A DNA stretch of 64,000 bases from an uncultured Mycoplasmatota bacterium (GTDB taxonomy: Bacteria > Bacillota_I > Bacilli_A > RF39 > UBA660): assembly GCA_900549285.1 (NCBI GenBank), contig URNW01000002.1, positions 15,450 to 79,449 on the forward strand. Direction: 5' to 3'. Of the stretch, positions 6,425 to 51,743 are shown in pieces. The position numbers and the translations under genes were made by a program. Below the pieces are notes generated by a model. That model saw only the letters and a program-made list of their open reading frames with translations. It searched no databases and was not told the origin of the DNA. Within the stretch, counting starts at the first letter, position 1, and every line of letters starts with the position of its first letter.

Positions 6425-7039
6425 CTATAAAATACTTTTTAATTCATATACATTTTTGATTGTTGGTATATCTTTTTCTTCTTTTTCAGTAATTAGATAA
6501 ACAGACATTCCTAGCTTTTTAGCAGGTAATATATCTATTAAATAATTATCACCAACCATTAAACATTCTTCTGGGAGATGGTCTCCCATGGCTTTTTTAA
6601 AAGCTTTAAAATTTGGTTTCATAGCTGTTTCACCACTTATTATTTCTTTAAAAAAGTTAGCTATTTTGGCTTTTTTTAGACGATTATATTGAGAAATATA
6701 AAACCAATTCGTTAGTATTACTAATTCATATTTTTTTTGTAAATAAGAAAGTGTTGATATTAATTTTTCGTCTACTTCACTCATGTTTCCTAAGTGTTTT
6801 AACCAGTGCTTTATGATAGAATTATCTACATTTTTTTTATATATTTGATTAAAATACTTTGTCATATTTTCTATACTTAATTGAGTTAAATTTTCTTGAT
6901 ATCCTTTTTTTAATTTAGAAAGTGTTTGATCTTCTAAAGTAATATGACACTCTTTTAAAGCTTTTCTAGCTGCTTCATCATATTCCTCTTTCCATGCAAT
7001 TAAAGTATTATCTAAGTCAAATATTATTCTTTTTAACAT
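6425..7039 (-). CDS. HAD-superfamily hydrolase
   Basis: FDLDNTL motif I and a GDN motif near the C-terminus. The start is moved to MLKRIIFDLDNT (7039) behind AAGGAGG, because the track's longer ORF runs into the T-box terminator. Confidence 0.75.
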   Translation of the reverse strand: MLKRIIFDLDNTLIAWKEEYDEAARKALKECHITLEDQTLSKLKKGYQENLTQLSIENMTKYFNQIYKKNVDNSIIKHWLKHLGNMSEVDEKLISTLSYLQKKYELVILTNWFYISQYNRLKKAKIANFFKEIISGETAMKPNFKAFKKAMGDHLPEECLMVGDNYLIDILPAKKLGMSVYLITEKEEKDIPTIKNVYELKSIL

Positions 7040-7059
7040 GCTAACCTCCTTTAAAACAA

Positions 7060-7265
7060 ATAAAAAACCATAAACTAAGGACGAGAAAACCCGCGGTACC
7101 ACCTTAATTCATGATTTTATTTCATGCTACTTTCTCTTTTAACGGTTGAGTTTCCGATTAAACTCCAGAGTCATCTTCCATACTATTTTATACTTATTTC
7201 CATCAACCATAAGCTTTCTATAATGAAAATAATATGTACTCATTCCTTCAACATTTAAGTGATTT
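7060..7265 (-). promoter_or_regulatory. T-box leader (probable Met specifier) controlling HAD-metG operon
   Basis: The minus strand reads AATTAAGGTGGTACCGCGGG (T-box core at 7091..7103) followed by a U-run (7062..7067). There is a stem-I-like GAATGAGTA. A candidate specifier AUG lies in GGAAGAUGAC (7172..7174). Confidence 0.75.
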
Positions 7266-7266
7266 C

Positions 7267-7296
7267 ATTATATTATATGCATCACTCTTATGTCAA
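7267..7296 (-). promoter_or_regulatory. sigma-A-like promoter for the T-box/HAD/metG transcript
   Basis: TTGACA (7296..7291) and TATAAT (7272..7267) with an 18-nt spacer on the minus strand. Confidence 0.5.
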
Positions 7297-7301
7297 GAAC
7301 T

Positions 7302-7817
7302 TTATATATCTAATTTGTGAGAAAAAATACTTGCTATTAATTTTCCTATTACTGGTTCTTCTTTTAAATTTGATTCACTATATAAAATGATTAGACCAAT
7401 ACTGTCATTTAAAGAAATAATTGGTACAAAGACAAAATTGCCTTCTAGTGTATATTCTCCTACTTTAAATGATATGTTTTCTTTTATTTTTATTTCTCTT
7501 TCTTCTATCATTTCTAAGTATTCATCAGAAATTTTATTTCCTATGATATTGATATTTAAACCTGCACTTGCTATTACTTTTTCACGGTCTGTTATTATTA
7601 TTTTATAATTAAAAGTATTATAAATAATTTCACATAAATTATTTGCCAAATCACTATTTGAAGTCATTCGACAATATTTTTTTAAGATGATATTATCACT
7701 TTCTGTAAATATCTCCATATTTTCGCCATCACGTATTCCTAAATTTCTTCTTATTTCTTTAGGTATTACGATTCTTCCTAACTCATCAATTCTTCTTACT
7801 ACCCCAGTAGATTTCAA
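7302..7817 (-). CDS. spoVT: stage V sporulation protein T (AbrB-family regulator)
   Basis: N-terminal SpoVT/AbrB swapped-hairpin motif GVVRRIDELGRIVIPKEIRR plus a ~120-aa GAF-like C-terminal domain. Sits next to mfd as in Bacillus. Confidence 0.85.
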   Translation of the reverse strand: MKSTGVVRRIDELGRIVIPKEIRRNLGIRDGENMEIFTESDNIILKKYCRMTSNSDLANNLCEIIYNTFNYKIIITDREKVIASAGLNINIIGNKISDEYLEMIEEREIKIKENISFKVGEYTLEGNFVFVPIISLNDSIGLIILYSESNLKEEPVIGKLIASIFSHKLDI

Positions 7818-7873
7818 ATTTTACAACTCCAATCTAATATTAATATTGGCTAGTTTAAAAAAATTATGCATTT

Positions 7874-7895
7874 GAAAAAGCTACTTTTTGGTAGC
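7874..7895 (-). terminator. intrinsic terminator upstream of spoVT
   Basis: The minus strand reads GCTACcaaaaaGTAGC followed by TTTTTC. Confidence 0.45.
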
Positions 7896-8082
7896 ATATC
7901 TTTTTCATTCTTTAATAACTTCTCTTAATATTTGGATTTTTTTAAAGTTATATGTATTAAATCGTCTATTATGTTTATAAGTATATGATTCTTAACTTAA
8001 ACTGAGTTTCTTGTTCTTTTCGTACTCATGATTATATCATTATTTAAATAGGAAAATATATTGCTAATCTTCATAATAAAAA

Positions 8083-8111
8083 TTGAAATTATTTATTATT
8101 TCATGTAAAAT
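8083..8111 (+). promoter_or_regulatory. sigma-A-like promoter of template cassette 1
   Basis: TTGAAA (8083..8088), a 17-nt spacer, then TAAAAT (8106..8111). The predicted start falls at the left inverted repeat (about 8118). Confidence 0.5.
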
Positions 8112-8117
8112 AAATTT

Positions 8118-8402
8118 AGGCTAATCTATTATTATAGGTATGTCTCCGTATAACTTCAACAACGGTAATGCTAACGTGTTCTATGTGAATTCGACTGGCA
8201 ACCTCAACAACAACAACGTGAATTGGACTGAACCAGGTGTGCGCCCAATATCCTTTTAAACTTACTATTTGGCTAAGGCTAAATAAAAAAGCATTAGGAT
8301 ACAAGATTAGCCATTGGGAAACCTAAATATTTGATATTGATATTTTAAATCTTGTATTTAGAATTAGAACAATATCTTTGAGAGAGAATTCTCTCTTTTT
8401 CT
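8118..8402 (+). ncRNA. DGR template-repeat-like non-coding cassette 1 (IR-L, TR1, conserved 3' structured element, terminator)
   Basis: Components in order: IR-L GGCTAATCT (8119..8127); TR1 (8140..8247); a conserved ~75-nt 3' block containing TGGCTAA (8270..8276) and AGATTAGCC (8304..8312); and the terminator AGAGAGAATTCTCTCT plus T-run (8381..8402). A paralogous unit lies at 8986..9279. Confidence 0.6.
8140..8247 (+). repeat. template-repeat-like copy TR1 (AAC/AAT-rich)
   Basis: 108 nt running ATGTCTCCGTATAAC...AACAACAACAAC...GGTGTGCGCCCA. Its ends are identical to the variable segment at 11746..11850. Differences from that segment fall mainly on TR1 adenines. Confidence 0.7.
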
Positions 8403-8525
8403 TTACATTGATTTTAAGAGATATTGGCTATTTACTTAAAACTTGGAGTTATATTCATTTTATTATATTTACTTGTAGTTATGGAGTTACAAATCTAAAG
8501 TATACACGTAAATTTTATATTATCT

Positions 8526-8551
8526 TTCAAAAAGGTCATCCACTGGATGAC
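8526..8551 (-). terminator. orphan intrinsic terminator-like hairpin
   Basis: The minus strand reads GTCATCCagtGGATGAC followed by CTTTTTG. No intact minus-strand gene lies upstream of it. Confidence 0.35.
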
Positions 8552-8613
8552 TAATTGATAAACCAGATAAAATAAATATTATCGCTTTAAACAGGTCAAC
8601 GATAACTACAGAT

Positions 8614-8945
8614 ATGAAAAATCCAATTATTATTCCTGTTAGTCATGAAATAATAAATGAACATGATTTAGAACTAAATATTCTTGCTAATCGTGATTTC
8701 TTCTTTTACTTATGTCAGTCATCAATATAAACTAGTAAAAGATAATCATAATTATTTTGTTGATATTTTACTATTTAATATTGAACTAAATTGTTATGTT
8801 GTAGTTGAATTAAAACTAAGAATTTTAAAGAAGCCCTTTTATAATTAAACAATTGGTATTATTATTTCTAAAGAAAGTGATCAGTTAATAGTTAATTTTG
8901 TCCGAAATGATATGATTATTCCATTAGATTATAAACTGATTAAAT
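8614..8945 (+). pseudogene. decayed DUF1016/YhcG-like PDDEXK nuclease fragment
   Basis: Translated pieces in shifting frames include EHDLELNILANRDFFFYL, HNYFVDILLFNIELNCYVVVELKLRILKK and IGIIISKESDQLIVNFVRNDMIIPLDYKL. These match the C-terminal half of YhcG-type nucleases. Stops and frameshifts are present and the N-terminal half is missing. Confidence 0.55.
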
Positions 8946-8950
8946 CTTTG

Positions 8951-8979
8951 TTGTAATTTTTTTATTATCATCTTATAAT
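8951..8979 (+). promoter_or_regulatory. sigma-A-like promoter of template cassette 2
   Basis: TTGTAA (8951..8956), a 17-nt spacer, then TATAAT (8974..8979). The predicted start falls at the left inverted repeat (about 8986). Confidence 0.55.
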
Positions 8980-8985
8980 AAGATT

Positions 8986-9279
8986 GGTTAATCTAATAAA
9001 TGAAGCATGATGTCTCCGTATAACGTTAACTCTAACGGTAATGCTAACGTGTTCAATGTGTGGTCGGATGGCAACCTCAACAACAACCGCGTGGATAACA
9101 CGAATGGTGTGCGCCCAATATCCTTTTAAACTTATTGTTTGGTTAAGGCTAAATAAAAAAGCATTAGGATACAAGATTAATCATTGGAATATATCCAAAA
9201 TAAATAATGTTGATGTTTTAAATCTTGCATTTAAAACTAATACAATATTAAAAAGTCTCATATTATTGAGGCTTTTTTG
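8986..9279 (+). ncRNA. DGR template-repeat-like non-coding cassette 2 (IR-L, TR2, conserved 3' structured element, terminator)
   Basis: Components in order: IR-L GGTTAATCT (8986..8994); TR2 (9010..9117); a conserved 3' block with TGGTTAA (9140..9146) and AGATTAATC (9174..9182); and the terminator AGTCTCAtattatTGAGGCT plus T-run (9254..9279). Confidence 0.6.
9010..9117 (+). repeat. template-repeat-like copy TR2 (AAC/AAT-rich)
   Basis: 108 nt running ATGTCTCCGTATAACGTTAAC...AACAACAACCGC...GGTGTGCGCCCA. It has the same 10-nt 5' end and 12-nt 3' end as TR1 and the variable segment. Confidence 0.7.
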
Positions 9280-9392
9280 CTAATTAGAATATAATAGTTT
9301 ATATATTGTAGTTTATACTATTAATAAAGATTAAACTACCATCAATAAATAACGATTATTTATTATGGGGTATGATATTAAAAAATACCTTA

Positions 9393-9848
9393 TTATTTAA
9401 GATATTTAGGATCATCCGTTTTACCTAAGAGGTAATCAGCAGATATGTTGTATTTTTTACATATATCATATAAAAATGGCGTTGCTATAATATTTTTACC
9501 TATTTCATAACCACTAATTGTTGATTTTGAATAATGTAAAATACCTGCTAAATCTGCTTGAGTTAAATTATATTTTTTACGTAATTCTTTTAAACGTATC
9601 CCAATTAATTTTTTATTTATTTCTAATCTATAATTAGAATAGTTTTTCATATTTGTAAAGCCAAATATATAATCTAGGGATATATTATAAAGATTAGATA
9701 GTGTATTTAAATGTTTAACAGGAATAATGGTCTCTCCTCGTTCATAATGACCATAGACATTTTTGTGTAAGTTTAAAAAAGTTGATATATCTTTTTGCGT
9801 AAATTTTTTTTCTTCTCTAGCATCTATTAATCTTTTCGTATAAAACAT
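9393..9848 (-). CDS. XRE-family transcriptional regulator with two HTH (Cro/C1-type) domains, copy 1
   Basis: Two HTH_3-like halves (FTQKDISTFLNL...ERGETIIP and LTQADLAGILHYSKSTISGYEIG). Start moved to MFYTKRL behind GGTGG. Paralog of 9984..10439. Confidence 0.8.
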   Translation of the reverse strand: MFYTKRLIDAREEKKFTQKDISTFLNLHKNVYGHYERGETIIPVKHLNTLSNLYNISLDYIFGFTNMKNYSNYRLEINKKLIGIRLKELRKKYNLTQADLAGILHYSKSTISGYEIGKNIIATPFLYDICKKYNISADYLLGKTDDPKYLK

Positions 9849-9921
9849 AAATACCACCATAGAAAAATTTTCTCAAAAGAAATAGAAAAAGTCAGAAATA
9901 AGACTTAATAGCGTTTTTGAT

Positions 9922-9950
9922 ATTGACTTTTAAACAGAACTCAACTATAA
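9922..9950 (+). promoter_or_regulatory. orphan duplicated promoter (copy of the target-gene promoter) firing antisense into the second XRE gene
   Basis: TTGACT (9922..9927), a 17-nt spacer, then TATAAT (9945..9950). It is preceded by the same TAAGACTTAATAGCGTTTTTG block seen upstream of 10512. Confidence 0.5.
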
Positions 9951-9983
9951 TGTATACATAATTGAAAATTCTTAACATAATAA

Positions 9984-10439
9984 TCACTTTCTAATATATT
10001 TAGGTTCATCTATTTTACCTAAGAGGTAGTCAGCAGATATATTGTATTTTCTGCATATATCATATAAAAAGGGTGTTGCAATTATCTTTGCCATTCTTTC
10101 ATAATCCCCAATAGTGGATTTACCAACATTTATGCTATCTGCTAATTCTTGCTGGGTTAAACCATATTCATTTCTTAGTTGCTTTAATCTTTCTCTTTGA
10201 AGTTCTTTACTAATAGTAGGAACAGCATTTTTATAATTAAGTACATCACAAAATTCAAAAACATAATCTAAAGATACATTGAAATAATTGCAAACATAAT
10301 TCAAATGTTTAATAGGAATAATAGTTTCTTCACGTTCATAATGTCCATAAACTTCATTTCCTAAACCTAATAACTTGGATATTTCTTTTTGTTTTAAATC
10401 ACATTTAGTTCTAATATCAATAAGTCTTTTCTTATACAT
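9984..10439 (-). CDS. XRE-family transcriptional regulator with two HTH domains, copy 2
   Basis: Same architecture as copy 1 (LKQKEISKLLGL...; LTQQELADSINVGKSTIGDYE), and the C-terminal ATPFLYDICxKYNISADYLLGK is shared. Start at MYKKRL behind GGTGG. Divergent from the target gene. Confidence 0.8.
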   Translation of the reverse strand: MYKKRLIDIRTKCDLKQKEISKLLGLGNEVYGHYEREETIIPIKHLNYVCNYFNVSLDYVFEFCDVLNYKNAVPTISKELQRERLKQLRNEYGLTQQELADSINVGKSTIGDYERMAKIIATPFLYDICRKYNISADYLLGKIDEPKYIRK

Positions 10440-10511
10440 TTTTACCACCATTTTAATTTTCTCAAAAACTTAAATTAAATGTACAATTAAGACTTAATAG
10501 CGTTTTTGTTG

Positions 10512-10540
10512 TTGACTTTATTATAACTATACTTTATACT
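10512..10540 (+). promoter_or_regulatory. sigma-A-like promoter of the variable surface-protein gene
   Basis: TTGACT (10512..10517), a 17-nt spacer, then TATACT (10535..10540), about 30 nt upstream of the ORF. Confidence 0.55.
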
Positions 10541-10569
10541 TAATATAGTTAAGGATTTTCAATTTTATA

Positions 10570-11922
10570 GTGAAAGAGGTTATAAAATTGAAGAAAGATG
10601 GAAGTATAGAATTTGAAACTATTAAATCTCATAAGAATAGATTATACTTTTTGTGTGGAATAGTCTGTGTAGTAGTACTTCTTGTTGTGTTTGTTATAAC
10701 TAGAAGTCATGCTAAGTACCGAACAACAGAATCTATTCCCTTAATAAATGGAACCATTAACTATATACCATATGATTTAAAAATGGTTGCTATGTATCAA
10801 GAAGAAAATGATGGTTATAAAAGTATAGATACAGTACCAACTAGTGGATATGCTTTAAATGAAGAGAAAAGCTATTGTGAAGTAAATGATACAAAAGATG
10901 AAAGCATATCTATGGAATATAAAGATGGAAAAGTATATATAGGAGTAAGTAAAAAAGGAACAAAATGTTACTTGTATTTTGATCAAGAACCAACGGCAAA
11001 AGATACAATATTAGCAAATAATTCTGTTAATAGTGGAACACCAAACTTTAGTCAGGTAGCAACAACGAATGAAGGAGTATATAAAACACAAGATGATTGG
11101 GGAGATAGTTATTACTTTAGAGGGGCTGTAGATAATAACTGGGTTAAATTTGCAGGATTCTATTGGCGAATTATTAGGATCAATGGAGATGGATCTATTA
11201 GATTAATCTATAATGGAACAAGTACAGCAACAACTGGAACAAGTACTCAAATACAAACAAGTACATTTAATAGTTCATATAATGACAATGCACATGTAGG
11301 ATATATGTATGGAAGTACAGGAGCAAATAGTTATGCAGCAACACATGCTAATACTAATAGTAGTACAATCAAAGGGGTATTAGATAATTGGTATCAGACT
11401 AATATAACAAATAAAGGATATGGAAATAAAGTAAGTACAGAAGCAGGATTTTGTGGAGATCGGGAACCAAGTACAAGTACATCAACAAGTAACGGTTCAG
11501 GAGGAACAGGGACAACAACTACATACTATGGCGGAAATATCAGATTAACAAATAGTACAAAATCTCCAATATTAAAATGTAAAAATAGCAGTGATTTATA
11601 TACGGTAAGCGGAAGTAGTAAAGGAAATAAAGCATTATCTAATCCAGTAGGATTAATAACCGCAGATGAAGTAGCTATGGCAGGAGGTGTGTGGGAAACA
11701 ACTAATCAAAGTTATTATCTATATACAGGACAGAATTATTGGCCCATGTCTCCGTCTAACTTTTTCGGCGGTTTTGCTCGCATGCTCTATGTGTCTTCGG
11801 ATGGCACCCTCAGCGTCGTCGGCGTGAATTACGCGCGAGGTGTGCGCCCAGTTATCAATTTACGGTCTGATATTACTATTTTATCTGGTGATGGTACTAG
11901 TTCTAATCCTTATGTTGTTTAA
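10570..11922 (+). CDS. membrane-anchored surface protein with C-terminal DGR-type variable region (putative DGR target)
   Basis: 450-aa ORF from a GTG at 10570; an alternative TTG at 10588 follows AAGAGG. It has an N-terminal TM helix, a conserved core (YYFRGAVDNNWVKFAGFYWRIIRINGDGSIRLIY) and a Ser/Thr/Gly linker. The C-terminal YW-x-SP...GVRPV module contains the GC-rich segment 11746..11850. Paralog of 49054..50349. Confidence 0.75.
   Translation: MKEVIKLKKDGSIEFETIKSHKNRLYFLCGIVCVVVLLVVFVITRSHAKYRTTESIPLINGTINYIPYDLKMVAMYQEENDGYKSIDTVPTSGYALNEEKSYCEVNDTKDESISMEYKDGKVYIGVSKKGTKCYLYFDQEPTAKDTILANNSVNSGTPNFSQVATTNEGVYKTQDDWGDSYYFRGAVDNNWVKFAGFYWRIIRINGDGSIRLIYNGTSTATTGTSTQIQTSTFNSSYNDNAHVGYMYGSTGANSYAATHANTNSSTIKGVLDNWYQTNITNKGYGNKVSTEAGFCGDREPSTSTSTSNGSGGTGTTTTYYGGNIRLTNSTKSPILKCKNSSDLYTVSGSSKGNKALSNPVGLITADEVAMAGGVWETTNQSYYLYTGQNYWPMSPSNFFGGFARMLYVSSDGTLSVVGVNYARGVRPVINLRSDITILSGDGTSSNPYVV
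11746..11850 (+). repeat. variable-repeat-like segment (VR) inside CDS 10570..11922
   Basis: 105 nt running ATGTCTCCGTCTAAC...GGTGTGCGCCCA, about 57% GC by hand count in an AT-rich gene. AAC/AAT codons of TR1/TR2 are replaced by TTC, GGC, TTT, CGC, TCT, ACC, AGC, GTC, GTC and GGC. The shared GC-rich 3' end GGTGTGCGCCCA is IMH-like. Confidence 0.7.
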
Positions 11923-11930
11923 GTAATTTA

Positions 11931-11962
11931 AAAAGCATCAAATTATTAGTTTGGTGCTTTTT
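11931..11962. terminator. bidirectional terminator between target gene and mfd
   Basis: AAAAGCATCA-11 nt-TGGTGCTTTT hairpin flanked by A/T runs. The right arm overlaps the last mfd codons. Confidence 0.5.
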
Positions 11963-14900
11963 CATTAGAATTATTTCCTGGGAAATAATCTTCTTTAATT
12001 AATTCTAAGATTGGAACGAAAGTATATAAAAAATGTTTATCTTCTGGTTTTAGCAAAAGTGTTAATTTAATTCTTTTATTTTGATAAGCAAATTTTATGT
12101 TAGGATTAATGTTATAACTTTCTAGAAATAGTTTATCTGCTTTTATATGGTTTGATAATTCTTCTGGTAATTCTAGTTCTACTAATCTTTCTGTTTGTGT
12201 TACTCTTGTAATATTTAGTGATTTTGCTAATTTTTCAAACCATTCTTCATACATGTAAATGATCATAGTTTCATCTACTTTTCCAAAACGATCTTCCAAT
12301 TCTTCTTTTACCTTTTTTAAGCTTTCTAAAGAATCAACTTCATTTATTTTTTGGTGAATTTCTATTTTTATTTCGTCATCAGTTGTATAATCGTCTGATA
12401 TATGGGTACTTACATCTACTAGTGATTCTTTTGTATCCTCTTCTGGTATTTCTTCACCTTTTAACCGACGCATTTCTTCATCAATCATTTGCATATATAG
12501 ATTAATACCTACTGAATCTACAAATCCAGCTTGTTCACTTCCTAATATATCTCCTGCACCACGGATTGCTAAATCTCGCATTGCAATTCGATATCCACTT
12601 CCTAATTCTGTAAATTCTTTTATGGCATCTAATCTTTTTATTGCTATATCATTTAACATTTTACTTTTATCATAAAGTAAATAAGCATAGGCTATTTTAT
12701 TACTTCTTCCAACTCTTCCTCTTATTTGATATAGTTGGGATAAACCAAAATGATCAGCATTATAGATAATTAATGTATTGGCATTAGGAATATCAATTCC
12801 TGTTTCTATAATTGTTGTACAAATTAAAATATCATATTTAAAGTCAATAAAGTCTTGCATTACATCTTCTAATTCTTCTTTTTTCATTCGACCATGAGCG
12901 CTTATAATTCTTGCTTCTGGTACTAACGCTTTTATATGACTTGTAATACTATCTAGCTTATCAATATTATTATAAAGTATGAATATTTGACCTTGTCTTG
13001 CTAGTTCTTTATAAATAGCATCTTTAATAATTAAATCATTTTCCGCTATAACATAAGTCTGGATTGGATAACGATTTACTGGTGGTGTATCAATAACAGA
13101 TAAATCTCTTAATCCTGACATAGCCATTTTTAAAGTTCTTGGTATTGGTGTTGCTGATAGAGTTAACACATTTACATCTGTTTTTAACTTCTTTATTTTT
13201 TCCTTATGAGTTACACCAAACCTTTGCTCTTCATCTACAATTAATAATCCTAATTTATTAAATTTTACATCATCACTTAATAATCTATGAGTACCAAAAA
13301 CAATGTCAATTGTTCCATTTTTTAAACCTTCTAATATCCTTTTTGTTTCTTTTGCAGAAGTAAAACGATTTAAGAGAGCTATTTCTATAGCGTAATCTTT
13401 AAAACGTTCTTTCGCTGATGAGTATTGTTGCTTTGATAAAATGGTTGTTGGACATAAGTAAAAAACTTGTTTATTATTTAAAACGGCTTTAAACATGGCT
13501 CTAAATGCTACTTCGGTTTTTCCAAATCCAACATCTCCACATAATAACCGATCCATAGGAACTTGATCTTTTAAGTCTTGATCTATTTCTTTTATCGCTT
13601 TGGATTGATCTTTTGTTGGAATATATTCAAAACTATTAGCAAAATCTCGTTCCATGTCATAAGATTTATAAGCATCCCCTTTTAAAGCTTTTCTTTCAGC
13701 ATATAGTTTTAACAATTCTTCGGATATATCTTTTATTTTCTTTTCTACTGCTCTTTTTGTTTTAGCCCATGTTGAAGAATTTAGCTTATTTATTTTAGGT
13801 TTTATTCCTTCTTTACTAGTGTATTTTAAGATTGTATTCATTTTTTCTACTGGTACATAAACTTTATCATTATCAGCATAAAGTATCTCAATATAATCTT
13901 TAGCTAATCCTTTTTTAGATAATGTTTTAATTCCGTTATATATTCCGATTCCATGAGCCATATGTACTACATAATCCCCTTTATTAAGAGAATTCAAATC
14001 TTTAATTTTATGACCAATTTTATATAGATTCCGATATTTTATTGTTTCTTTTTTTACTTGTTCAATATCATTTTCACTTATCACTACACATTTATCTATT
14101 ATAAATCCCTGAGACAAATATTTATTTTCAATCGTGATTGGTACAGTGATTAATTCTTTAATAATCTTAATTTGATTTTCTTTACTTAAATAAAAGAAAA
14201 TTTCATAACCCTTTTTATGCCAAATCTCTGTTTGCTCTTTTAATTTTTCAAAATCAGAATGAAAGTTTGGTATTTCTTTAGCATTAAAATCTAATATTTT
14301 AGAATGTTTGGATATATTTTCAATAAAATTTATATAAATATTTTCTTTTGGAGATATCTCATCTAAGCTAAACATGAAACGATAATCTTTTTCTAGTCCT
14401 TTAGCAATACGATATTCAAACATCTCTTCTTCTAACTTTTCATAATTAGCTTGGATTCTTGTTTCATCAATTGTTATTACAATTGCATTGGAAGCATAGT
14501 CTAATAAACTAGATTGATGATCAGATATTATTTCACTATTCGATATTAACCTAATTTCTTTTATTTCTTTTAAAGACATCTGGGTTTCTTCATCAAAATA
14601 TCTTATAGATTCTATTGTGTTACCAAAAAATTCTATTCTAATTGGATGTTCTTCTAAAGTTATAAAGATATCTACTACAAATCCCCTTACAGCATATTCA
14701 CCTGTGGTAGTTACTATTGTGTCTTTTTTATAATCTAATTTTTCTAATAATTCTAATAATTTTTCACGATTTATTTCATCTCCTTTTTTTAAGATGATAT
14801 TCATTTTTTCTTGAGTGTTTTTATCTGTTAAAAACTTTAAATAGCCCATTAAGTTAGTTACAATGATTCCTTGTGTTTTTTTTATATTTTCTAAAGTATC

Positions 14901-33663: not shown

Positions 33664-33766
33664 TGCTTAAAAAGCACTTTTTTTATGTATTTTAAAAAGA
33701 TTTTTTTAGTTAAGAAAAATAACGTATTTTAGGAACTATCATACAATACTTTAGAGGAGGATGTTT

Positions 33767-35131
33767 ATGGCTAAAAAGGTTGTTATCGATCCTGGTCATG
33801 GAGGAGAAGATCCTGGAACAAGTGCTAATGGTATTGTAGAAAAAGATTATACTTTAAAGATAAGTGAGTATATGGCTAATCGATTATCAGATTTGGGAAT
33901 TCAAACCGCTTTAACTAGAGATAGTGATGTAACTTTAGATTCTACTAATCGTCCTAAAAAAGCTCAAAGTTTGTTTGGGACGGGTAATGATGTTATTTTA
34001 GTTTCTAATCATATTAATGCTGGTGGTGGAGATGGAGCGGAAATTATTTATGCTTTGAGAAATAGTGATAATTTATCTTCTAAGATAGCCCAAGAATTTA
34101 TTAAATCTGGACAAAATGTGCGGAAATATTATCAAAGGAGACTTCCTAGTAATTCTAGTAAAGATTATTATTATATATTAAGAGAAACACCAAATAATGA
34201 ATCTATTATTGTAGAATATGGATTTGCTGATTCAACTGGGGATGATGTAGATCAAATTAAAAATAATTGGCAAGATTTAGCGGAAGCTGTAGTTCGTGCT
34301 TTAGCGGATTATATCGGAGTTAGTTATATTCCACCTGAAGGTGCAGAAGAAATTTATTATACTGTAAAAAAGGAAGATACTTTATATGGAATTGCTAAAC
34401 AATTTGGTATTAGTGTAGATGAACTTAAAATAAGCAATTATCTAACTAATAATACTTTACGTGTTGGACAAACACTTGTTATACCTAAAATAGAAGAGTC
34501 TGATAGTACTTATGAAAATAAATATATTGTAAAAAAAGGAGATACTCTTTATAGTATTGCTAAAAGATATGGTATGACAGTAGATGAACTTAAAGATTTA
34601 AACCATATTACTAATGATATTCTCTCCATTGGTCAAGAATTAATTATTACTGATGAAAATACAAATCCATTAGATACCTATACTGTGAAATCTGGTGATA
34701 CATTATATAGTATTGCCAATCGATTTGGACTTACAGTAGATGAAATAAAACAGCTGAACCATTTAACTAGTGATATTTTATCTGTAGGACAAGTTTTAAA
34801 TATTAGTAATAATAATGATTCTTCTAGTGATTCTGATCCTATTTATATTGTTAAGAAAGGTGATTCATTATATAGTATAGCACGTAAATTTGGAATTACG
34901 GTGGATGATTTGATGAAGACTAATGGAAAAACTTCTAATTTAATTTCTATTGGCGAATCTTTAGTGATTCCTCTACATTCTAATACTCATAAAAGAACAT
35001 ATGAAGTACAAACAAATGATAGTTTATGGAAGATAGCTCAAGCTTATGGAACAAGTGTAAATGCGATTAAAAAAGCTAATGGATTAACTAGTGATTTACT
35101 TTCTATAGGGCAAGTTTTAGTAATACCTTAA
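33767..35131 (+). CDS. N-acetylmuramoyl-L-alanine amidase (Amidase_3) with five LysM repeats
   Basis: VIDPGHGGEDPGT amidase_3 N-terminus, then five repeats of the Y-x-V-K-x-GDTLY-x-IA type. Start at MAKKVV behind GGAGG. Confidence 0.85.
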   Translation: MAKKVVIDPGHGGEDPGTSANGIVEKDYTLKISEYMANRLSDLGIQTALTRDSDVTLDSTNRPKKAQSLFGTGNDVILVSNHINAGGGDGAEIIYALRNSDNLSSKIAQEFIKSGQNVRKYYQRRLPSNSSKDYYYILRETPNNESIIVEYGFADSTGDDVDQIKNNWQDLAEAVVRALADYIGVSYIPPEGAEEIYYTVKKEDTLYGIAKQFGISVDELKISNYLTNNTLRVGQTLVIPKIEESDSTYENKYIVKKGDTLYSIAKRYGMTVDELKDLNHITNDILSIGQELIITDENTNPLDTYTVKSGDTLYSIANRFGLTVDEIKQLNHLTSDILSVGQVLNISNNNDSSSDSDPIYIVKKGDSLYSIARKFGITVDDLMKTNGKTSNLISIGESLVIPLHSNTHKRTYEVQTNDSLWKIAQAYGTSVNAIKKANGLTSDLLSIGQVLVIP

Positions 35132-49053: not shown

Positions 49054-50349
49054 TTAAATTTCGTATGGTGTTGAAGCTGATCCATTTCCTGATTTTATTG
49101 CTACATTACTTGAGATGTTGATAACTGGACGGACACCAATTGTGCCATTAATGTAGATTTCTAACGAGCTACTTTCAGATACATAAAACATGTAAGCAAT
49201 ACTTGATTTCGTAGACAGACAAGCTGGAGACAAGGTCCAATAATCTTTACTTGTATATAGATAATAACTTTGATTAGTTTGTCCATATACTCCTCCAGCA
49301 AAAGCTACTTCATCTGCTGTTATTAATCCTACTGGATTAGATAATGCTTTATTTCCTTTACTACTTTCACTTACTGTATATAAATCACTACTATTCTTAC
49401 ATTTTAATGTTGGAGATTTTGTATTATTTACTAATCTGATATATCCTCCGTAGTATGTTTCTGTTGTTCCTGTTCCTCCTGTGCCATTACTTGTTGATGA
49501 ACTTGTACTTGGCTCCCGATCACCACAAAATCCTGCTTCTGTACTTACTTTACTTCCATGCCCTTTATTTGCTATATTAGTTTGATACCAACTATCTAAT
49601 ACGCCTTTGATTGTACTACTGCTTCCAAGTCCATGAACTTGATAATTTGTGTACATATATCCTACATACATGTTATTATTGTAAGAATTATTAAATACAC
49701 TTGTACTTATTTGTGTGTTTGTTCCAGTTGTAGCTGTACTTGTTCCATTATAGATTAATCTAATAGATCCATCTCCATTAATTCTGATAATCCTCCAGTA
49801 GTATCCTGCAAATTTTACCCAGTTATTAGTTACTGCCCCTCTAAAGTAATAACTATCTCCCCAGTCATCCTCTGCTTTATATACTCCATCATTCGTTGTT
49901 GCTACGCTTGCAAAATTTGGATTTTCACTATTGATTTGATTATCTCTCTTGATAGCATCTGCTAATAATATTTTTTGTTCATCAAAATACAAATAACATT
50001 TTGTCCCTTTCTTAGTCATTGGTGTTACAGTTAAAGTTTTGCTTTCACTATCATAACTTAACTTAATATTATTATCTTTTTCATTATTTATTGTACAATA
50101 AGATTCACTCGTTAACTCATAATTTCCATCAGGTAAAGTATCGACTTCTCTTCCATCTACTTTTATTGCTACTATATTTAAATCAGCTAAACTATAATTA
50201 ATGGTTCCATTCACAAGTGGGATAGACTCTGTATTTTTAAATTTTGCTCTAGTAAAAGTTAAAATAATTGCACTAATAATCGCTACTAATACCACAGCTA
50301 TTACAATATTTCTTGTTAAATGGCTTTTCTTTAAAGTTTCTATTTCCAT
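49054..50349 (-). CDS. membrane-anchored surface protein, undiversified paralog of 10570..11922
   Basis: Same architecture and a highly similar core (YYFRGAVTNNWVKFAGYYWRIIRINGDGSIRLIYNGTSTATTGT). The C-terminal module YWTLSPACLSTKSSIAYMFYVSESSSLEIYINGTIGVRPVINI is AT-rich with no TR-like flanks. Start at MEIETLKK behind GAGGGAAAGG. Confidence 0.75.
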   Translation of the reverse strand: MEIETLKKSHLTRNIVIAVVLVAIISAIILTFTRAKFKNTESIPLVNGTINYSLADLNIVAIKVDGREVDTLPDGNYELTSESYCTINNEKDNNIKLSYDSESKTLTVTPMTKKGTKCYLYFDEQKILLADAIKRDNQINSENPNFASVATTNDGVYKAEDDWGDSYYFRGAVTNNWVKFAGYYWRIIRINGDGSIRLIYNGTSTATTGTNTQISTSVFNNSYNNNMYVGYMYTNYQVHGLGSSSTIKGVLDSWYQTNIANKGHGSKVSTEAGFCGDREPSTSSSTSNGTGGTGTTETYYGGYIRLVNNTKSPTLKCKNSSDLYTVSESSKGNKALSNPVGLITADEVAFAGGVYGQTNQSYYLYTSKDYWTLSPACLSTKSSIAYMFYVSESSSLEIYINGTIGVRPVINISSNVAIKSGNGSASTPYEI

Positions 50350-50798
50350 CCTTTCCCTCTTTTCTTGTGAATCATAACATACTTTTAGACTTATTACATG
50401 CAATTCGACAAAATTTTTCAAAACTTGTCAATATTATTATCGTATAATTATCTATGTTATATTTCTAGTATACATTATTATTGAGTATTAATCAACAATA
50501 ATGTTACTATTTTGGTATTTGAATTATTTTTAAATAAAAATATAAAGTTTACTAATCCTATTGATTTGATAGATGAAATATTATTAAAGGTTAACGGAAA
50601 GCTATCGATTTTACTAATGAAATTAATTAAATTAGCCATTTGCTTTTTTTCTTTCTTTTTTATATAGTGATGTTAGAAAGGAAGGAAAAGAAATGTTATG
50701 AATTATTTATTACATTAGAGAAATGATAAAATATTGAATAAATTTTCTATTATGTATGATTTGAAAAATTAAGTTTTTATTATGGGGAGGGTTATAAG

Positions 50799-51743
50799 AT
50801 GAAAAATGAAATAATTATTTTTGAAAATCAAAGTGTTAAATTAGAGGTAAATATAAAGGATGAGACTGTGTGGTTAAATAGGCAAGAATTAGCTATGTTA
50901 TTTGATAGAGATATTAAAACTATTGGTAAGCATATTAATAATGCTTTAAATGAAGAATTAAAAGATATTCCAACTGTCGCAAAATTTGCGATAGTTCAAA
51001 AAGAAGGATCAAGAGAAGTAACTAGAAAAGTTGAATATTATAATTTAGATATGATATTGAGTGTTGGATATAGAGTTAAATCAGATAAAGGCATTATTTT
51101 TAGAAGATGGGCAAATAATGTTTTAAAAGATTACATGATTAAGGGTTATGCAATTAATGAGAAAAGATTAGAATGTTTAGAAAAGACAGTTAAATTAATA
51201 GAGATTGCAAATAGAATTGATGAGAAGTTAGATAATAGTGATGCAAAAGAAATCTTAAAGGTGATAGGTACTTATTCTAAAGCTTTAGACTTATTAGATA
51301 ATTATGATCATAAAGTTTTATCTAAACCTAAAGGAAATAATAGTGATAGTAAGATTAAATATGAAGATTGTTTAGATATTATTAATAAATTGAGATTTAA
51401 TGAGGAAAGTAATTTATTTGCTTTAGAAAGAAATAAAGGATTAGAGGGAATAATAGGAAATATTTATCAAACATTTGATGGTAAATATGTATATGAAAGT
51501 ATTGAAGAGAAAGCTGCAAATTTTTTATATATGATTGTCAAGAATCATGTGTTTATTGATGGTAATAAAAGAATTGCTGCTACTTTGTTTATTTATTTTT
51601 TAAATTATTATCAAATTTTATATAAAGATCATAATCAAGTTATTGATAATAATACTTTAGTAGCTTTGACTTTACTTATTGCTGAATCTAATCCTAAAGA
51701 AAAGGAAATTATTATTGATTTAGTTATGAATTTTTTGAATTAA
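50799..51743 (+). CDS. RhuM-family protein fused to Fic/Doc (death-on-curing-like) domain
   Basis: N-terminal RhuM pattern (VWLNRQELAMLFDRDIKTIGKHI...YYNLDMILSVGYRVKSDKGIIFRRWAN). The C-terminus carries the Doc-type motif HVFIDGNKRIA. Confidence 0.75.
   Translation: MKNEIIIFENQSVKLEVNIKDETVWLNRQELAMLFDRDIKTIGKHINNALNEELKDIPTVAKFAIVQKEGSREVTRKVEYYNLDMILSVGYRVKSDKGIIFRRWANNVLKDYMIKGYAINEKRLECLEKTVKLIEIANRIDEKLDNSDAKEILKVIGTYSKALDLLDNYDHKVLSKPKGNNSDSKIKYEDCLDIINKLRFNEESNLFALERNKGLEGIIGNIYQTFDGKYVYESIEEKAANFLYMIVKNHVFIDGNKRIAATLFIYFLNYYQILYKDHNQVIDNNTLVALTLLIAESNPKEKEIIIDLVMNFLN

Follow-up and report, generated by a model that had tools for sequence, protein, structure and literature searches.

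The window, i.e. the whole stretch of 64,000 nucleotides (nt) that was analysed, has a guanine-plus-cytosine (GC) content of 26.5% and is chromosomal DNA of an uncultured low-GC member of the Bacilli, close relatives of which have been deposited as 'Mycoplasma sp. CAG:776', 'uncultured Bacilli bacterium' or Candidatus Caccenecus. The gene order in the region studied is a T-box leader, genes for methionyl-tRNA synthetase and a HAD hydrolase, a gene for a SpoVT/AbrB regulator, a first RNA unit (unit 1), the remnant of a YhcG nuclease gene, a second RNA unit (unit 2), two double-helix-turn-helix (HTH) genes on the minus strand, a gene for a membrane-anchored protein of 444 amino acids (aa) on the plus strand, and the gene for Mfd. 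Each unit starts with a sigma-A-type promoter and a left repeat of 9-10 nt, continues with an A-rich template repeat (TR) and a conserved spacer (~130 nt) and ends in an intrinsic terminator. In our judgement it is likely that each unit is a stand-alone RNA gene of a diversity-generating retroelement (DGR), composed of the TR and its cis-acting spacer, and that the corresponding enzyme is encoded elsewhere.

The coordinates given for both units in an earlier note, made from this DNA alone, were all correct when compared with the sequence, and the conserved 3' block described there was recovered as well: the two units are 94% identical over the 82 nt after the TR and 80% identical over the next 54 nt, with a mean column identity of 84% overall. 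The elements of both units are listed here, with helices numbered P1 to P5 and with reference, where indicated, to the spacer (Sp) of the BPP-1 DGR RNA.

8083..8111 (+), unit 1 promoter, TTGAAA-17-TAAAAT, from a promoter scan and the -10 position conserved in homologues
8118..8127 (+), unit 1 P1 5' strand, AGGCUAAUCU, upstream strand of a duplex resembling cPRT Stop, from folds and pair counts
8119-8127 (+), unit 1 left repeat, GGCTAATCT
8140..8248 (+), TR1, A/AAC-rich template repeat
8249..8254 (+), unit 1 P2 5' strand, UAUCCU, putative template side of a template:primer duplex, with compensatory variants in homologues
8266..8285 (+), unit 1 P3 hairpin, UAUUUGGC-UAAG-GCUAAAUA, at the position of the Avd-binding stem-loop
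8270-8276 (+), unit 1 local element, TGGCTAA
8296..8301 (+), unit 1 P2 3' strand, AGGAUA, with A8301 as putative 2'-OH priming nucleotide by analogy to Sp A56
8302-8303 (+), unit 1 linker of 2 nt, CA
8304-8312 (+), unit 1 3' partner of the left repeat, AGATTAGCC
8304..8313 (+), unit 1 P1 3' strand, AGAUUAGCCA, from pair counts
8316..8329 (+), unit 1 P4, short stem-loop GG-GAAA-CC and then near-invariant UAAAUA, comparable to the BPP-1 Sp71-81 stem-loop and A-minor adenosines
8333..8376 (+), unit 1 P5, long interrupted stem-loop at the position of the element bound by reverse transcriptase (RT)
8380..8402 (+), unit 1 intrinsic terminator, hairpin and T-run, dG -7.8
8951..8979 (+), unit 2 promoter, TTGTAA-17-TATAAT, from a promoter scan
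8985..8994 (+), unit 2 P1 5' strand, UGGUUAAUCU, from folds and pair counts
8986-8994 (+), unit 2 left repeat, GGTTAATCT
9010..9118 (+), TR2
9119..9124 (+), unit 2 P2 5' strand, UAUCCU
9135..9156 (+), unit 2 P3 hairpin
9140-9146 (+), unit 2 local element, TGGTTAA
9166..9171 (+), unit 2 P2 3' strand, AGGAUA, with A9171 as putative priming nucleotide
9172-9173 (+), unit 2 linker, CA
9174-9182 (+), unit 2 3' partner of the left repeat, AGATTAATC
9174..9183 (+), unit 2 P1 3' strand, AGAUUAAUCA
9185..9202 (+), unit 2 P4, stem-loop UGGA-AUAUA-UCCA and then AAAUA
9206..9249 (+), unit 2 P5, long stem-loop
9250..9279 (+), unit 2 intrinsic terminator, hairpin and T-run, dG -8.9

The template character of the units became evident from comparison with a protein-coding gene downstream of them:

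10588..11922 (+), putative DGR target gene, 444 aa, TTG start, N-terminal transmembrane helix
11746..11857 (+), variable repeat (VR) at the 3' end of the target gene, encoding residues ~387-423 of 444

Both TR1 (8140-8248) and TR2 (9010-9118) are homologous to this VR, which comprises the last ~110 nt of the coding part of the target gene. When TR1 was compared with the VR over 85 nt, 20 mismatches were found at adenines of the TR and 4 elsewhere. The homology between TR and VR ends at A8248, where the TR reads ...GCGCCCAA and the VR ...GCGCCCAG. Among 88 homologues of the target protein, hypervariable residues correspond to A-containing codons of the TR and alternate with invariant scaffold residues. 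The TRs use AAC and AAT in frame at a ratio of 366:216 (63% AAC), in contrast to 37:341 (10% AAC) in the genes of the window. Adenine-specific mismatches between TR and VR, variability at A codons and the AAC bias argue that the units carry DGR templates. Adenine-biased TR/VR differences, a VR at the 3' end of a target gene, an AAC-rich template and RNA cis elements are all present at this locus.

Homologues of the units were retrieved with a 19-nt word from the conserved block, which led to 48 related stretches in 18 species-level genomes and to one chance match in Lutispora (individual loci are designated by L numbers), and a hidden Markov model of the spacer detected 76 copies, duplicates included, two of them in the window. 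The family amounts to ~70 homologous units in 18 genomes of uncultured low-GC Bacilli. Retrieval is incomplete, since 12 of the ~70 units do not contain the exact 19-mer and were found only as neighbours in retrieved loci. When viral contigs were scanned with two spacer 19-mers no matches were obtained, and a blastn search with unit 1 gave no match among phage records.

For the structural comparison, 55 distinct units were aligned (alignment A4), and these also served to evaluate whether the units are transcribed autonomously, from promoter to terminator, as had been proposed in the earlier note. Promoter-like hexamers occur 46 times in the window where 35.9 ± 6.2 would be expected and are not above chance, so that the case for autonomy is based on the family comparison. 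A perfect TATAAT -10 box is present in 39 of the 55 units and a box with at least five of six matches in 48, and in 45 units the -10 hexamer ends 6-7 nt 5' of the GG of the left repeat (P1), despite locus-specific upstream DNA. A terminator hairpin was found in 40 of the 55 units, the hairpin sequences being mutually unrelated; the terminator of unit 2 had been missed by a simple scan and was detected in this family analysis. The positional conservation of the -10 box and the independent terminators speak for the proposal, and at the level of sequence it is supported that the template RNAs are autonomous genes with a promoter and a terminator of their own. The transcription start of unit 1 is predicted to lie within ~2 nt of position 8118.

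Sequence and covariation together reveal the plan of a unit: a promoter placed for a start at the first strand of P1, a ~110-nt AAC-rich TR, a ~130-nt spacer and a terminator. In the fold, P1 (10 bp) pairs the 5' end with the spacer and thereby loops out the TR, P2 lies 2 nt 5' of P1 on the spacer strand, the tetraloop hairpin P3 is located between the strands of P2, and P4 (the stem-loop with UAAAUA) and P5 follow 3' of P1. The long-range closing stem is present in the minimum free energy and centroid folds of both units, with z-scores of -2.96 for unit 1 and -2.84 for unit 2, and none of 200 shuffled sequences folded as well. Unguided application of RNAalifold to the 55 units yielded the helices P1-P5 with double changes in 22 of 44 pairs. 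When pairs were counted and compared with 500 shuffles and with slid controls, 97.3% of the cells of the named structure were paired, versus 91.5% in shuffles and 31-47% in slid controls, and 22 pairs were changed on both sides, versus 11.3 in shuffles; none of the 500 shuffles matched any observed measure, although these are counts and not probabilities, since the unit sequences are related. Folding of the two units and of their homologues thus provided five helices backed by compensatory changes.

The earlier note had claimed that inverted repeats bracket the TR and that their pairing is maintained by compensatory changes between the two units. The pairing was borne out: P1 is paired in 98.2% of its cells, compared to 93.9% in shuffles (0 of 500 as high) and 12-49% in slid controls. 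As to compensation between the two units, one true double change (C-G to U-A) stands; the other change is from G-C to G-U. Compensation in two sequences is weak evidence, yet it holds in the family, where the third pair of P1 is UA in 39 units, UG in 10, CG in 6 and never C-A. The outermost pair of P1 is UA in 27, AU in 15, GC in 2, GU in 1 and UG in 1 of the units and unpaired in 9. These variable pairs were not fixed by the retrieval because their positions fall outside the search word. P2 joins the 3' end of the TR by six pairs to AGGAUA of the spacer and shows compensatory double changes at three positions, the variants being UAUCUU/AAGAUA in L002 and L042, UACCCU/AGGGUA in two units of L029, both devoid of the search word, and UAUUCU/AGAAUA in a unit of L037 that also lacks the search word. 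The hairpin P3 covaries strongly (UA35/CG11/AU7 at one pair, GC40/AU13 at another), and P5 (helices 6-7) presents double changes in 13 of 15 pairs. A local pairing of AGATTAGCC with TGGCTAA had been suggested as an alternative to P1; it was paired in 84.2% of cells, exactly as in shuffles (84.2%), and the alternative TGGCTAA/TTAGCCA was rejected as unsupported, TGGCTAA being the 5' arm and loop of the covarying P3.

Two peculiarities were noted near the template:primer duplex. Five units (L009 5750-6049, L043 2239-2542, L028 1045-1339 and L033 6932-7229 and 4602-4892) carry a GC-rich, hairpin-forming insertion of 15-25 nt, for example GACCTGTCAAGCGCCCAACAGGC, at the extreme 3' end of the TR, directly 5' of the duplex. 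The second unit of L031 (minus strand, ~2555-2685) has a G at the putative priming adenosine (GGATGCAAGATTA) and is otherwise intact.

In the DGR RNA of Bordetella phage BPP-1, whose structure was solved together with bRT-Avd, the spacer forms two adjacent duplexes, one of them with the 3' end of the TR and ending in the priming adenosine Sp A56, and another, which starts 2 nt further and is called 'cPRT Stop', with a segment 5' of the TR; cDNA synthesis ends at the latter duplex (10.1101/2023.10.23.563531). Activity was not regained when complementarity within this stop duplex was re-established (10.1101/2023.10.23.563531). Avd binds a tetraloop hairpin with which the spacer of this RNA begins. 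Beyond the stop duplex, the RNA has a stem-loop of 2 bp, unpaired adenosines engaged in A-minor contacts, 13 nt of single strand that surround the RT thumb, and a long interrupted stem-loop to which the RT binds. Putative stop duplexes were predicted by Handa et al. in 207 of 278 DGRs (10.1101/2023.10.23.563531). The order of elements in our units is the same as in the BPP-1 RNA (avd 3' end, TR, 140-nt Spacer), the linker is also 2 nt long, and their spacers of ~130-150 nt are close to the 140 nt of BPP-1. Shared by the units and BPP-1 are a template:primer duplex ending in A, a tetraloop hairpin, a short stem-loop with unpaired adenosines, a single-stranded stretch and a long interrupted stem-loop. 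Since element order, linker and size match those of the BPP-1 DGR RNA, the bracketing repeat corresponds to the stop duplex of a DGR RNA and, on this analogy, the P1 duplex is a known DGR RNA element (cPRT Stop) and not a new RNA feature. The comparison suggested in the earlier note, namely to the TR-spacer RNA that primes DGR cDNA synthesis, therefore extends to the architecture of the entire spacer. Unlike BPP-1, the units possess their own promoter and terminator, are not flanked by avd or brt and have no sequence similarity to BPP-1; the upstream strand of P1 is the transcript's own 5' end in the units and the end of the avd coding sequence in BPP-1.

By analogy with BPP-1, a DGR RT together with Avd, both encoded elsewhere, would bind the RNA, Avd at P3 and the RT at P5 and the preceding single strand. 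The 2'-OH of the A that closes AGGAUA (A8301 for unit 1 and A9171 for unit 2) would serve as primer, the TR would be copied with misincorporation at adenines from A8248 or A9118 as first templated base, cDNA synthesis would halt at P1, and the cDNA would replace the homologous VR in one of many paralogous target genes.

Such an enzyme is postulated, neither a DGR RT nor Avd having been found in the window or in ~680 kb of related loci. The earlier note had called the units unlinked to an RT, which is true of the 64-kb window and of all related loci that could be read, and examination of the neighbourhoods of the spacer motif in other genomes revealed no DGR RT next to any of the ~70 units. An ordinary DGR, whose RT lies just beyond the examined stretches and for which our units are extra TRs, with the RT-linked unit carrying a variant spacer missed by the search word, is in our opinion very unlikely. 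The incomplete retrieval (12 of ~70 units without the exact 19-mer) and the extent to which loci were taken (8 kb) would leave room for it, and published DGRs include some with at least two TRs and some with remote targets. However, not one of the ~70 units has an RT in its readable flanks (up to 10 kb, and up to 55 kb in the window), nearly all units end in their own terminator (hairpin in 40 of 55) instead of running into a gene, and even with one RT-linked unit the other 8-11 per genome would be unlinked.

Broader searches for the lineage's enzyme gave RTs of other origins. With a Clostridium phage RT as query, all RTs obtained by homology were of Lachnospiraceae type. Scanning metagenomes with an AT-biased back-translation of IGNLTSQxFAN led to 67 loci, all belonging to the candidate phyla radiation (CPR), DPANN, phages or otherwise unrelated, among them L088 (from an archaeon) and L064 (a canonical, unrelated DGR). 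The same back-translation in viral contigs led to 17 loci, all unrelated. In the gene contexts around target homologues and YhcG genes (8 contexts), the sole RT was a retron RT. This is encoded at L128 19112-20074 (+), between an AbgT transporter gene and ychF and 6.6 kb from an array of four units; it is Ec107-like (PADLOC, E 7e-122), has a below-cut-off match to the retron St85 family of NCBIfam, and is not a DGR RT. The YxDD regular expression and the DGR tblastn searches are not expected to detect a retron-type RT; a protein-family scan covered the open reading frames (ORFs) of the window to ~15 kb.

We give almost no credence to the idea that the units are retron-like non-coding RNAs (ncRNAs) that serve a retron RT, their bracketing repeats taking the role of a1/a2. 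The retron msr-msd ncRNA and the units have in common a structured RNA, inverted repeats that close the template, and 2'-OH priming, putative in the units, and L128 does carry the retron RT just described. However, further genes, parAB and mscS among them, lie between this RT and the nearest unit, and a single locus of ~65 contains it. Retrons differ from the units in using an RT of a different clade, in lacking adenine mutagenesis and a VR and in having a2 at the 3' end of the RNA. In the units, by contrast, the repeat has its 3' partner inside the RNA, with ~90 nt of conserved structure (P4, P5) and the terminator beyond it, no retron RT adjoins, and cognate VRs show adenine-specific changes, a hallmark of DGR RTs. 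To our knowledge, such changes are not known for retron RTs. An Rfam match is also lacking: covariance models applied to positions 7000-12500 at E ≤ 1 detected the T-box leader alone and placed the units in no Rfam family. The analogy to retron a1/a2 stems, which the earlier note had also offered, stands for topology and not beyond it.

Several results weigh against the view that the units are functional stand-alone DGR RNA genes. A DGR RT was not detected in the window by the YxDD regular expression, which would miss YSDD-type motifs, or by tblastn, and tblastn with three DGR RTs and two Avds revealed no DGR RT or Avd in ~65 related loci (~680 kb); for Avd (two queries, window and related loci) this is a weak negative, Avd being divergent. 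The exact target protein including its VR was encountered on ~90 metagenome contigs, on which the VR was invariant, and three 90%-identity clusters of targets showed no VR variation, so that no sign of ongoing diversification was seen in either set. Neither of the two local TRs matches the VR at all non-A sites (4-10 non-A mismatches), and the 3' third of the VR fits only TR2-like sequences. Finally, no variation is seen at the six inner pairs of P1 or in most of P2, in part owing to the search word, which spans those positions, and covariation in P1 is confined to its 3-4 outer pairs; the relatedness of the units, which limits the shuffle counts, belongs here as well.

The mismatches of the VR can be accounted for if its template resides at another locus. 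TR1 fits the VR over the first 85 nt only, and TR2 requires a gap and leaves ~10 non-A mismatches. The best fit over the full length of the VR (105 nt, gapless, 20 A and 5 non-A mismatches) was obtained with a template type located 5' of dedA in other species, and for this reason the cognate template of VR 11746-11857 is probably elsewhere in the genome, with TR1 and TR2 probably serving other paralogues. A paralogue of the target within the window (49054-50421, minus strand) was ruled out as the VR for these TRs, since it has 33 non-A mismatches to the best TR; this paralogue has kept the C-terminal scaffold (...GVRPVINI) but fits none of the known templates, and a RhuM/Fic gene adjoins it at 50799-51743.

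The missing RT and Avd, the identity of the VR on ~90 contigs, its constancy within clusters and its non-A mismatches to both local TRs would also be expected if the lineage had lost its DGR RT and the TR units and VRs were decaying, functionless leftovers. Damaged units do exist: in L008, P2 is broken and the TR frameshifted, and a TR is missing from the middle unit of L007. In addition, Treponema provides a precedent for target genes that persist after loss of the core DGR. Nevertheless, we regard such relics as unlikely. The helices keep pairing through compensatory changes in 18 species-level genomes, perfect -10 boxes occur at a fixed distance in 39 of 55 units, and the TRs, though untranslated, maintain a six-fold AAC enrichment against the codon bias of the genome, which argues for continuing purifying selection.

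Stand-alone DGR RNA genes being the preferred reading, their distribution deserves attention. The number of units per genome ranges from 1 to 12 across the lineage, with lower bounds of at least 9 in Mycoplasma sp. CAG:776, at least 12 in CAMMXG01, at least 6 in JAGHGS01 and at least 5 in CALVQH01, and units are arranged singly, in tandem or interleaved with other genes. In L023 (1673-2843), four head-to-tail units with a spacing of ~345 nt are situated 3' of a target gene and 5' of the ribosomal protein S10 operon, and L007 harbours an array of three units. Genes that accompany the units in the window are:

8684..8848 (+), continuing to ~8945, remnant of a YhcG/DUF1016 PDDEXK nuclease gene (Pfam YhcG_C, E 1.3e-11)
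9393-9860 (-) and 9984-10451 (-), genes of double-HTH_3 (RstR-like) regulator paralogues, 76% identical, divergent from the target gene

Since the YhcG remnant lies in the 550 nt between the two units, the pair in the window represents a duplicated [YhcG-unit] module. Units alternate with YhcG/DUF1016 PDDEXK genes (PADLOC candidate defence gene PDC-S02) in L046/L128 and L029, and intact YhcG paralogues are encoded directly 5' of units in L046/L128, L029 and L027. The layout with HTH genes on the minus and the target gene on the plus strand is also found in L002, L005, L029, L128, L130 and L133, and HTH and target genes are paired in all target loci that were examined, even in those devoid of a template unit. 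The complete order of the window, i.e. unit, HTH (-), target (+), recurs in another species (L002).

The lineage would thus keep a library of 1-12 template genes per genome, which differ in their TRs, are scattered or grouped in small arrays and often adjoin a target gene and its HTH regulator, and an enzyme acting in trans would serve all of them. As a possibility that we put forward tentatively and would not call likely, these genomes might operate a distributed DGR, in which one trans-acting RT-Avd serves up to a dozen independently promoted template-RNA genes. In such a case, the template gene that is transcribed would decide which surface-protein paralogue is rewritten, the double-HTH regulators, which in several loci are encoded between unit and target, could exert control over the choice of template, and templates, organised in [YhcG-unit] modules and tandem arrays, could behave like cassettes that are duplicated, shuffled and lost. 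In a more extreme version, a DGR RT would be altogether absent from these genomes, and the RT of a phage or another mobile element would serve the template genes.

Dispersed components are not without parallel. The trans-acting chromosomal DGRs of Treponema denticola, Thiohalocapsa PB-PSB1 and 'Lineage 4' (Wu et al. 2018) have, like our units, many dispersed paralogous targets, and their components need not be adjacent or co-transcribed. In those systems, however, the TR remains beside the RT and remoteness is limited to the targets, whereas here the templates are dispersed, up to 12 in number and individually promoted. More than one TR per system, as with our units, has been noted for Stenotrophomonas sp. 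SKA14 (two TRs; MetaCSST survey), but the cassettes of such multi-TR cases were found with RT/TR models, without analysis of their TR RNAs as transcription units in their own right. Searches of the literature for natural TRs that stand alone, are orphaned or occur in multiple copies, and for this lineage, yielded nothing of relevance, and the dispersed RT-free arrangement is not described there. Unlike the RNA fold, the genome organisation is unusual and, as far as the searched literature goes, new, consisting of dispersed, multi-copy, independently promoted template RNAs and no RT in cis.

In the standard pipeline for DGR discovery, repeats are sought only around an RT. Because catalogues are built by RT first and then by nearby repeats, they are blind to templates and targets remote from the RT, and gut Bacilli may contain a sizeable class of hypermutation targets that has gone uncounted, the target family having more than 7,800 homologues in gut metagenomes. 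Also, ~70 natural DGR RNA variants with different TRs on one scaffold constitute a ready covariation data set for elements defined by cryo-EM in BPP-1, i.e. the stop duplex, the primer duplex with its linker of 2 nt and the A-rich segment 3' of the short hairpin. If the proposal were true, nature would run a large number of programmable templates, each from its own transcription unit, with a single enzyme, as engineers attempt. All these implications hinge on finding the RT and on showing activity.

The target protein was examined for the C-type-lectin or Ig fold on which the VR is displayed in DGRs. Comparison with Pfam gave a sub-threshold match to DUF6273 only, a profile search of the PDB with this protein gave no relative, and the AlphaFold model of its C-terminal 240 aa has a mean pLDDT of 49.7, too low for use of the fold. 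A 687-aa protein encoded in the tail region of a phage (L129 7506-9569, an IMG/VR contig of 34% GC) is 55% identical to the last 240 residues of the target, and its neighbourhood contains no RT, Avd or template unit.

Some further observations concern the units and their surroundings. The four units of L023 are the most divergent members of the family (GGGTTAATCT / AGATTAATCC). In the middle unit of L007 (1073-1192), ATGTCTCCGT is fused directly to TAAACTTA, so that promoter and spacer scaffold are left and the TR is deleted. Many YhcG homologues are found on very short contigs, as occurs with repeated or mobile DNA. In L013, L020 and L027, the units are followed 3' by genes made of GGTCCAGTA-type triplet repeats, which encode collagen-like Gly-Pro-Val runs on the opposite strand. 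Elsewhere in the window, the T-box leader (7074-7260, minus strand; Rfam RF00230, 106.5 bits, E 1.4e-23) lies 5' of the HAD hydrolase/methionyl-tRNA synthetase operon, and an ORF at 33761-35131 contains four tandem repeats of ~160 nt (34353-34908, plus strand), whose translation (YTVKKGDTLYGIAKQFG...) resembles LysM domains.

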